Shown here: in pieces, positions 58,270 through 59,787 of the stretch
How the letters are laid out: every line of letters starts with the position of its first letter
Numbering within the stretch: the stretch's first letter is position 1
NCBI RefSeq assembly: GCF_016026235.1
Contig: NZ_CP065613.1
Length of the DNA stretch: 64,000 bases
Direction: 5' to 3' (one strand)
Source: Escherichia coli
Lineage (GTDB): Bacteria > Pseudomonadota > Gammaproteobacteria > Enterobacterales > Enterobacteriaceae
Notes under the pieces: model-generated
Seen by the model: only the letters and a program-made list of their open reading frames with translations
What the model was told of the DNA's origin: nothing
The model's database searches: none
Program-made: the position numbers and the translations under genes

Positions 58270-59787
58270 TTAAGGTAGCGTCTTATACATCGGGACATAA
58301 CCTACATCTTCCACCAAACTCTGTCCCTGCGGCGTTAAAAACCACTCCAACAATTTTTGTGTCTCTGACGTCGTATTTTCCCGCGTTACCATAAAGGCAT
58401 CGACGATATAGGGATATTTGCCGTTGCGAATGTTTTCGGCAGTCGGTGCAATACCGTTAATCGCTAGCAGTTTTATATTTTTATCGGCGTTCATTTGTGT
58501 TGCGTAATAACGGAAGGTGTAACCTATTGCGTTGTTTGTATTACGGTATTCGGCAACGACTTTAATCATTCCCTCCATCATACTTGCCACTTCTGTTTCC
58601 TGCGGCGAGATCATGCGGACATTTTTCATGACCTGGGATTGCATCACCGTCTGGCTGCCAGAGTCTTCCGGGCGCTGCCAGGTCTGGATCTCCTGATCGT
58701 TACCGCCAACAGTACGCCAGTTGGTAATTGCACCACTGAAAATGTCACGCACCTGTTGTTCAGTCAGGGAATTAACCGGATTATCCGCATTGACGATGAA
58801 AACGAATGCTTCACGGGCAAAGGGGGTGTACAGCAAAGTGACACCAGATTCCTTTGCACGTTTTTTTTGCCCACCGGAAGGTTGCGCCACAAAAATAATA
58901 TCAGCATCGCCCTTAACGATTTTGTTATATGCTTCTGGCGTACGAGAGTTTTCCAGATAATCCCAAACGTGAAAATCCTCTGGTATTACACTTAATGCAT
59001 AAAATGCAGAAGCATAAATTGGGTACGCAGCCGTGGCGCCATCGATTCGCGGCCAGTTTTGCCTAAACTGAATTTGCGGTTTGCCACGCAGTGGCGTCAG
59101 TCGATTATTGAGTTTATCGGGTCGCCAGGCCCAGATATCAATATTTTCGCGTACACCGACACCAGGATTTTGCTGCTTATATAAATGGGCCTGATACCCA
59201 GCGACAATACCAAGTAAGAGAAGTAGAAACAGGAGTAAGTTACGGCAACGTAGTCCGGACGTGCCGGATAAAGGATATCTGGTCGGCCAGGCGTATCCCA
59301 GCGAAAAACTGATATGCGCCCCAACGGGAATAATGACCATCCACCAGTACTCACCACCCACTAATGAGACTAAAAAAACGCCCAACCAGGGAAGCATAAG
59401 GTTTGCCAACCAACCAGCTCCCATCTGGCGAAATTGATAATCTGCCAGATGTAGCGTGATTATCCAGCCAACCAGGGTTAATAGCGCGGGTAAGAGAAAA
59501 AAGCATTGCCGCCAGACGGCTATTTCTCTGTTTTCTGGCGCGCTATCACCGGCCCACACGCGACCAGAGAAAAATATTATTACCGCCCCCAGCGTCAGCA
59601 TAAAGACGTTGAGTAGAAGATAAATTGTTGGCGTGATAAGGATATTACAAACTTCAATAATACCGGTAAGCCCGACACCCAGCATGGCAACAACCGCTGC
59701 CAAAAATTGCGCCAGTATGGGGATGCCGAAAAAAGTCATTATCAGCGAGGTCAAAATCCATTTTCTATTTGGCATCATTCTGTCCAT
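58270..59787 (-). CDS. hypothetical membrane-anchored protein with C-terminal PstS/PBP-like periplasmic domain (island ORF 1 of 4)
   Basis: 505-aa ORF: the N-terminal ~200 aa contains about six hydrophobic helices; the C-terminal region (...[46 protein letters not shown]...) resembles the phosphate-binding-protein-like (PstS) fold signature. ATG at 59785-59787 is preceded by AGGAAG. Confidence 0.65.
   Translation of the reverse strand: [505 protein letters not shown]

Follow-up and report, generated by a model that had tools for sequence, protein, structure and literature searches.

A PstS-like binding domain joined to a family-specific membrane module at the glgP–glpD site of Escherichia coli

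The site between glgP and glpD of Escherichia coli, which is O-island 133 of O157, carries in a 64,000-nucleotide (nt) stretch of E. coli DNA (contig NZ_CP065613.1 of assembly GCF_016026235.1, hereafter the window) a gene for a membrane protein that ends with a PstS-like binding domain. This gene, here called A, occupies positions 58270..59787 on the minus strand and is an intact open reading frame of 505 residues, with an ATG start and without frameshift. The order in the window is glpG, glpE and glpD (54594-56114, plus strand), with glgP (61342-63789, minus strand) beyond them; the interval from glpD to glgP holds the four co-oriented minus-strand genes A, B, C and D, separated by gaps of 15, 2 and 2 nt. 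The neighbours of gene A are glgP, an IS4 element, the three small genes B, C and D, which have no assigned function, and glpD. Orthologs of gene A are named ‘PstS family phosphate ABC transporter substrate-binding protein’ in RefSeq, and no permease or ATPase gene of an ATP-binding cassette (ABC) transporter adjoins gene A in the window.

Architecture of the gene A protein

The C-terminal part of the protein, residues 247-500 (58288..59049, minus strand), is a PstS-type periplasmic-binding-protein domain, or Venus flytrap. Residues 247-485 match Pfam PBP_like_2 (PF12849) with an E-value of 2.6e-31, and residues 250-500 match the PstS family of NCBIfam (TIGR02136) with an E-value of 9e-36. The match to the PstS family is far above chance, and at 123.5 bits it stays below the curated cut-off of TIGR02136, which is 206.6 bits. 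A profile of 29 homologs retrieves the solved PstS 4q8r in a search of PDB sequence profiles (E-value 1e-26). In a PHROGs scan, the generic phage PstS family was the only match. The AlphaFold2 model of the protein, with a predicted local distance difference test (pLDDT) score of 86, consists of six helices, a linker and an alpha/beta domain, and Foldseek places phosphate-binding proteins (9l8j, 4gd5 and 4q8r) first among the PDB matches of the alpha/beta domain, at target template-modelling (TM) scores of 0.77-0.79. An initial annotation made from the sequence had described a fusion of a polytopic membrane region to a PstS-like domain, had quoted a PstS-family signature, which is located at residues 336-362, and had proposed a profile search of the C-terminal region; the intact reading frame, the two profile matches and the model bear out the fusion.

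The correspondences in the binding site are those of an alignment of the family to PstS of E. coli and of Clostridium perfringens. The GATA loop at residues 250-253 (59029..59040, minus strand), in which G250, T252 and A253 are invariant in the family, brings T252 to the position of Thr10 of E. coli PstS. T283 (58939..58941, minus strand) corresponds to Ser38 and is kept in at least 90% of sequences, and the RPEDSGSQ loop (58651..58674, minus strand) provides R372 for Arg135 and S376-G377-S378 for Ser139-Gly140-Thr141, with R372, S376 and S378 invariant in the family. The full phosphate-coordinating set of PstS (Thr10, Ser38, Asp56, Arg135, Ser139, Gly140 and Thr141) is nevertheless incomplete in the alignment: Asp56 is matched by A301 (58885..58887, minus strand) in the motif DIIFVAQPS, a position held by Ala or Gly in most members. 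Conservation of oxyanion-coordinating residues, which the initial annotation had singled out for inspection, is thus found at T252, T283, R372 and S376-G377-S378 and is lost at Asp56. In PstS, this Asp is the hydrogen-bond acceptor that selects protonated phosphate. The flanking Ser residues of the GSTS loop of Clostridium PstS are also changed to Ala in the gene A protein, giving GATA. The family has invariant motifs of its own, namely REAFVF, AQPS, QRP..SGSQ, GY[TS]FR[YF]Y with an extra invariant Arg426, and NG.YP. Since the Thr/Thr/Arg/Ser-Gly-Ser set is kept and the Asp56 acceptor is lost, the sequence suggests that the cleft binds an oxyanion or phosphoryl group, a phosphate-like ligand recognized with a specificity other than that of PstS.

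The membrane module comprises residues 6-206 (59170..59772, minus strand). Alignments and AlphaFold2 models with pLDDT of 86 and 88 support six predicted helices, at residues 6-47, 53-82, 87-114, 124-144, 149-169 and 176-206. P23, G75, R93, W108, P133 and Q199 are invariant or nearly so in the alignments, and only P23, W108 and Q199 strictly. A Pfam search with residues 1-246 gave nothing significant, no Pfam or NCBIfam family covers the module, no solved transporter resembles it in a comparison with solved structures, and its fold matches in AFDB50 all fall within the gene A family. The module is followed by a juxtamembrane linker of 40 residues (207-246; 59050..59169, minus strand) with the consensus E.ID...Y.P....N.LTPL.G.P.L.F...WPR.D, which is kept across phyla, as seen in the alignment and in a Firmicute example (locus L071).

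The topology was judged indirectly, from the Lys and Arg counts in the loops of each class of helix number with the binding domain placed outside. The classes with three and five helices then have 184 such residues inside against 10 outside and 104 inside against 15 outside, respectively, whereas the six-helix class, to which gene A belongs, has 88 inside against 138 outside. The positive-inside pattern of the six-helix class is [+,0,+,0,0,+], with the N-terminus, the loop between helices 2 and 3 and the loop between helices 5 and 6 positive; in all classes, a strongly positive loop precedes the last helix. Helix 149-169 is less hydrophobic than helix 124-144 and carries the conserved motif IPVG....F.LG. 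Enterobacterial paralogs of the binding domain, about 330 residues long and 57-64% identical to it, begin with the lipoprotein signals LISGC, LMSGC and LLAGC. Because of the charge distribution and these lipoprotein paralogs, the binding domain is very probably periplasmic, the number of crossings being deduced from the same counts. In the most likely arrangement, five crossings lead from an N-terminus inside to a C-terminus outside, and helix 149-169 is embedded in the membrane without spanning it; the cytoplasmic loops would be about 18 residues long at most. The charge counts of the three- and five-helix classes, the lipoprotein paralogs and the PstS fold all speak against a cytoplasmic C-terminal domain with a different fold, an outcome that the initial annotation had itself considered.

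Gene D and the distribution of the family

Gene D (56166..56771, minus strand), the last gene of the co-oriented row, encodes a membrane protein of 201 residues and is a homologous copy of the A membrane module, free of a binding domain. This homology follows from a profile-profile comparison and from retrieval of a D allele with the module profile. In hhalign, the A module and the D family align with a probability of 97% and an E-value of 1e-10 over 164 collinear columns, which take in the PVG....F.LGY motif and the positive loop after it. A search of 1.84 billion representative proteins with the A-module profile found only 150, most of them proteins of about 500 residues in which the module is fused to the binding domain, and some stand-alone proteins of about 200 residues; the D allele P0168 is among the latter (E-value 1.4e-5). 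Gene D occurs in 3876 of 5426 complete E. coli genomes, as two deeply divergent allele classes, and stand-alone modules are also found in other bacteria with no binding-protein gene nearby. An O157 strain and strain BAP1, presumably a BL21 derivative, have a D-type gene that shares 1 nt with the gene for a lipoprotein copy of the binding domain. This unit is present in 877 genomes and looks like a split version of A. The homology to D, the stand-alone copies elsewhere and the split arrangement with a lipoprotein copy indicate that the membrane part is probably a functional module and more than a tether. The description of the protein as membrane-tethered in the initial annotation therefore stands as regards the covalent connection to the membrane and probably falls short as regards the role of the membrane part, a module that also exists as a separate gene.

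Gene A itself is found in at least 3346 of the 5426 complete E. coli genomes (about 60%), O157:H7 and the presumed BL21 derivative included, and is thus directly open to the standard genetic methods for E. coli. E. coli K-12 keeps only a remnant, yzgL, at the same place between glgP and glpD. This remnant matches bases 1-235 of gene A at 89% identity, that is, its 5´ end, and K-12 lacks the rest of the gene as well as the genes downstream, whereas the gene in the window is intact. A search of the literature found no study of the gene A family, an absence that is probably explained by the deletion in K-12.

Beyond E. coli, a scan for two family motifs in one genome of each of 100,044 species confirmed 578 relatives or more, spread over Firmicutes, Actinobacteria, Spirochaetes, Synergistetes, Planctomycetes and Beta-, Gamma- and Epsilonproteobacteria. 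Homologs that span the full length, at about 500 residues, come from Klebsiella, Salmonella, Intestinirhabdus, Phytobacter, Budviciaceae, Leminorella, Leclercia and Brachymonas. Helices and gene neighbourhoods were analysed at the best 80 of these at least 578 loci, and the family gene could be placed in 78 of the 80. The reading frames at nearly all 80 loci open with predicted membrane helices, usually three to six, and three have a lipoprotein-type signal only. Three helices are typical of the Bacillales-type proteins of about 385 residues, and five or six are found in proteins of about 490-520 residues. Clustering of the neighbouring reading frames called at the 80 loci revealed no conserved partner gene; ABC ATPases are scattered among them, and at the 78 loci no ABC gene directly adjoins the family gene, which is also never beside pst genes there. 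On the strength of this clustering, the family as a whole goes without a transporter partner, and what the initial annotation had noted for the window, the absence of adjacent ABC permease and ATPase genes, holds across the loci of the relatives. In a Leclercia species, a homolog of gene A with 40% identity lies directly upstream of a gene for polyphosphate kinase 2 (PPK2; locus L012, 9625-10449), a single case that may be a coincidence.

The content of the glgP–glpD site varies between strains. The row A-B-C-D is shared by the window and strains C11 and ST540, strain AR_451 has A-C-D, the O157 strain and BAP1 have A, the 330-residue paralog of the binding domain and the D-type gene, and strain TA054 has several paralogs. 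Klebsiella and Salmonella carry gene A at the same site with other genes downstream, encoding YbbD_head or DUF4279 proteins at the corresponding place. E. coli strains that are about 1% apart in glgP are 5-12% apart in the nucleotide sequence of gene A. For gene A as a whole, the ratio of nonsynonymous to synonymous substitution rates (dN/dS) is 0.14; the membrane part has a value of 0.22 and the binding domain one of 0.086, compared with 0.016 for glgP. Because dN/dS is 0.14 and the changes are mostly synonymous, gene A is functional and under purifying selection, and diversifying selection was rejected on the same value as the cause of the allelic divergence, which looks like the result of old or imported alleles. 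The divergence is local: glpD differs by 2-5% between strains with about 1% difference in glgP and forms a hotspot together with gene A. It is also mosaic, as gene D of the window is 99.8% identical to that of strain C11 and gene A only 91%. The mosaic divergence at glpD and gene A points to recombination with imported alleles.

A possible ABC-independent receptor and its alternatives

PstS-type proteins are textbook partners of ABC importers, and the present family points to another use of a binding protein at the membrane. PstS of the PstSCAB importer (of E. coli; of C. perfringens, 4gd5 and 4q8r; and Synechocystis Sll0540, 9l8j) and the gene A protein have in common the two-lobe fold, the equivalents of Thr10, Ser38, Arg135 and Ser139-Gly140-Thr141, and an extracytoplasmic location; in its way of working, the gene A protein stands nearer to PstS-type binding proteins than to any other known system. 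In contrast to PstS, the gene A protein has no signal peptide and instead has a polytopic module of 200 residues, it scores below the family cut-off, it has Ala for Asp56 and invariant motifs of its own, and its gene has neither pstCAB genes nearby nor a Pho box. Binding proteins are anchored by a lipid or a helix in Gram-positives and archaea, and they are fused to ABC permeases in GlnPQ and OpuA. The gene A protein is likewise held covalently at the membrane surface, but unlike in GlnPQ- and OpuA-type or TRAP fusions its membrane part is no known permease (there is no match to BPD_transp_1 or another Pfam family) and no ATPase gene is associated with it. Periplasmic binding-protein domains also occur in histidine kinases, chemoreceptors and diguanylate cyclases. 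The gene A protein shares with such sensors the combination of a periplasmic flytrap and transmembrane helices without a transporter; it differs from them in ending with the binding domain. The binding domain by itself is unremarkable; the unusual features are the private membrane module with which it is consistently combined and the missing transporter.

In the explanation that we consider most likely, with a probability of about 0.5, the gene A protein is a receptor that is integral to the membrane and independent of ABC transporters; it would bind either a phosphate-like anion or a phosphorylated ligand, and would act by way of its own membrane module, possibly together with D. The C-terminal Venus flytrap would lie on the periplasmic face of the inner membrane, permanently joined to the family-specific helical module, and its cleft would hold such an anion, or the phosphoryl group of some larger molecule, with a specificity unlike that of PstS. 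Closure of the flytrap upon ligand binding would act on the protein's own membrane module, and may act also on the free module paralog encoded by gene D. The protein would then serve as a receptor or regulator at the level of the membrane and not as a phosphate donor to PstCAB. If the ligand is a phosphorylated molecule of the envelope or of signalling, the family could bring a new subject to the study of envelope physiology; if the protein simply binds phosphate, its current database name is roughly right.

Several observations weigh against such a receptor. The gene A protein is without a cytoplasmic output domain, and in about 9 of the 78 loci a response regulator, GGDEF protein or kinase is encoded no more than two genes from the family gene, which is about the chance level. 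The best candidates for a Pho box in 14 enterobacterial upstream regions match 10-13 of 18 positions, no better than shuffled sequence, so that regulation gives gene A no tie to phosphate starvation. The term sensor used in the initial annotation finds no backing in any of these three respects. The six-helix charge pattern fits an outside C-terminus only if helix 4 or 5 does not span the membrane, and the low conservation of the module, with few conserved polar residues, would fit a passive anchor as well. Finally, the loss of the Asp56 equivalent and the Ser-to-Ala changes relative to the closest solved PstS make the ligand uncertain.

A related possibility, which we put forward tentatively and consider rather unlikely, is that the fused arrangement (A) and the split one (lipoprotein plus D-type protein) are two forms of a two-module device, a transporter or transducer outside the ABC, TRAP and TTT classes, with a phosphorylated ligand and not free phosphate. 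As a transporter without ATPase, the helical module, probably as an oligomer, would be the translocation path and would be fed by the fused flytrap, much as with the binding domains fused to some ABC and TRAP systems. The pairing of the two modules persists all the way from Firmicutes to Proteobacteria, both arrangements occur, the split one with the overlapping D gene, and the gene stands alone without partner genes, all of which would suit a new binding-protein-coupled transporter; even so, we regard this specific proposal as quite doubtful. The more conventional view of an accessory, membrane-anchored PstS, which captures phosphate near the membrane and passes it to a PstCAB encoded elsewhere, also seems to us unlikely. 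Other bacteria are known to have orphan PstS paralogs, the solved structures closest to the gene A protein are those of genuine phosphate-binding PstS proteins, in some cases with phosphate bound, most of the phosphate-contacting positions are conserved, and RefSeq names the orthologs as members of the PstS family. However, the score of 123.5 bits against a cut-off of 206.6, the replacement of Asp56 by Ala, the lack of a Pho box and the fact that the gene is never beside pst genes in the loci examined all argue against a service to PstCAB, and simple anchoring needs no conserved polytopic module that also exists alone.

The variable content of the site, which holds different gene sets across strains and genera, raises the question of a role unrelated to nutrients, in envelope protection or interbacterial competition, with gene A as immunity-like cargo of the island. 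YbbD-like and DUF4279 proteins are among the neighbours, paralogs of the binding domain occur in tandem, lipoprotein paralogs in Salmonella share an array with Rhs fragments, an Ntox34 fragment, a toxin piece and small lipoproteins (described below), and the A alleles of E. coli differ by about 10% where glgP differs by about 1%. This has to be set against the absence of a toxin gene next to A in the window, a PADLOC scan of A-D with zero matches, a family that is mostly a solitary gene in very diverse phyla and has a highly conserved cleft, selection that is purifying and not diversifying, and C-type neighbours that occur elsewhere without A; on balance, we think a competitive role improbable. 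We consider it very improbable that the topology is reversed, with the PstS-like domain as a membrane-anchored, intracellular ligand-binding domain. Six full crossings with a positive N-terminus inside would indeed bring the C-terminus inside, and for the six-helix class an outside domain gives the unfavourable count of 88 inside against 138 outside. The three-helix (184 against 10) and five-helix (104 against 15) classes, on the other hand, clearly favour an outside domain, close paralogs of the binding domain are lipoproteins, all solved relatives are extracytoplasmic, and every class has the strongly positive loop before the last helix.

Upstream region and other genes of the site

Gene A appears to have its own promoter, as a consensus TATAAT hexamer, read from the sequence as a putative -10 element (59805..59810, minus strand), sits downstream of the glgP terminator and 18 nt upstream of the ATG. 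The hexamer is also kept in other E. coli loci. The motif TTTC(A/G)GAAAAGTG, followed by a G-rich stretch, is found between the glgP terminator and the -10 hexamer (window 59820-59850). It is kept upstream of gene A in Escherichia, Klebsiella and Salmonella and more loosely in Phytobacter (upstream regions of loci L004, L005, L014, L017, L093, L095 and L096), and could be the binding site of a regulator; it is not a Pho box. A complete IS4 element of 1426 bp (59883..61308, minus strand) lies between A and glgP in the same orientation as gene A. It is inserted in the loop of the hairpin of the intrinsic glgP terminator, splitting its two arms, 95 bp upstream of gene A, and is flanked by the 12-bp target duplication GGCCAAAGGGTC (59871-59882 and 61309-61320). 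IS4 occupies the same position in the glgP terminator in 13 complete E. coli genomes.

Gene B (57544..58254, minus strand) encodes a soluble protein of 236 residues and starts 15 nt past the end of A, and gene C (56774..57541, minus strand) encodes a soluble protein of 255 residues, with gaps of 2 nt to both B and D. Both proteins are cysteine-rich, and their genes are tightly packed between A and D (56774-58254). Apart from a weak likeness of the N-terminus of B to YbbD (PRK09781), no relatives of B and C were found in Pfam, NCBIfam, PADLOC or the PDB. We treat B and C as separate cargo of the island because the C family is almost restricted to Escherichia and the only distant homolog of C sits at a locus that has no A-type gene. 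In Superficieibacter (locus L019), parts of B, C and D are combined in a single short open reading frame, a sign of decay by deletion.

The array in Salmonella enterica (locus L007, 1-14300) is a long same-strand series of small secreted proteins, lipoproteins and cytoplasmic proteins. Its contents include Rhs C-terminal core fragments with a DPxGL motif, the Ntox34 fragment, a toxin piece with a metallopeptidase-like HEXXH motif and a HEAT-repeat protein, and inside it are two lipoprotein paralogs of the PstS-like domain, with a repeated segment after each of them. Secreted proteins of about 141-145 residues with Y(R/K)D.NGN.KGT repeats flank the island of E. coli TA054 (locus L010, 4987-5412 and 10636-11064), and a protein with the same repeat is encoded at the same site in Superficieibacter by a reading frame of 145 residues.

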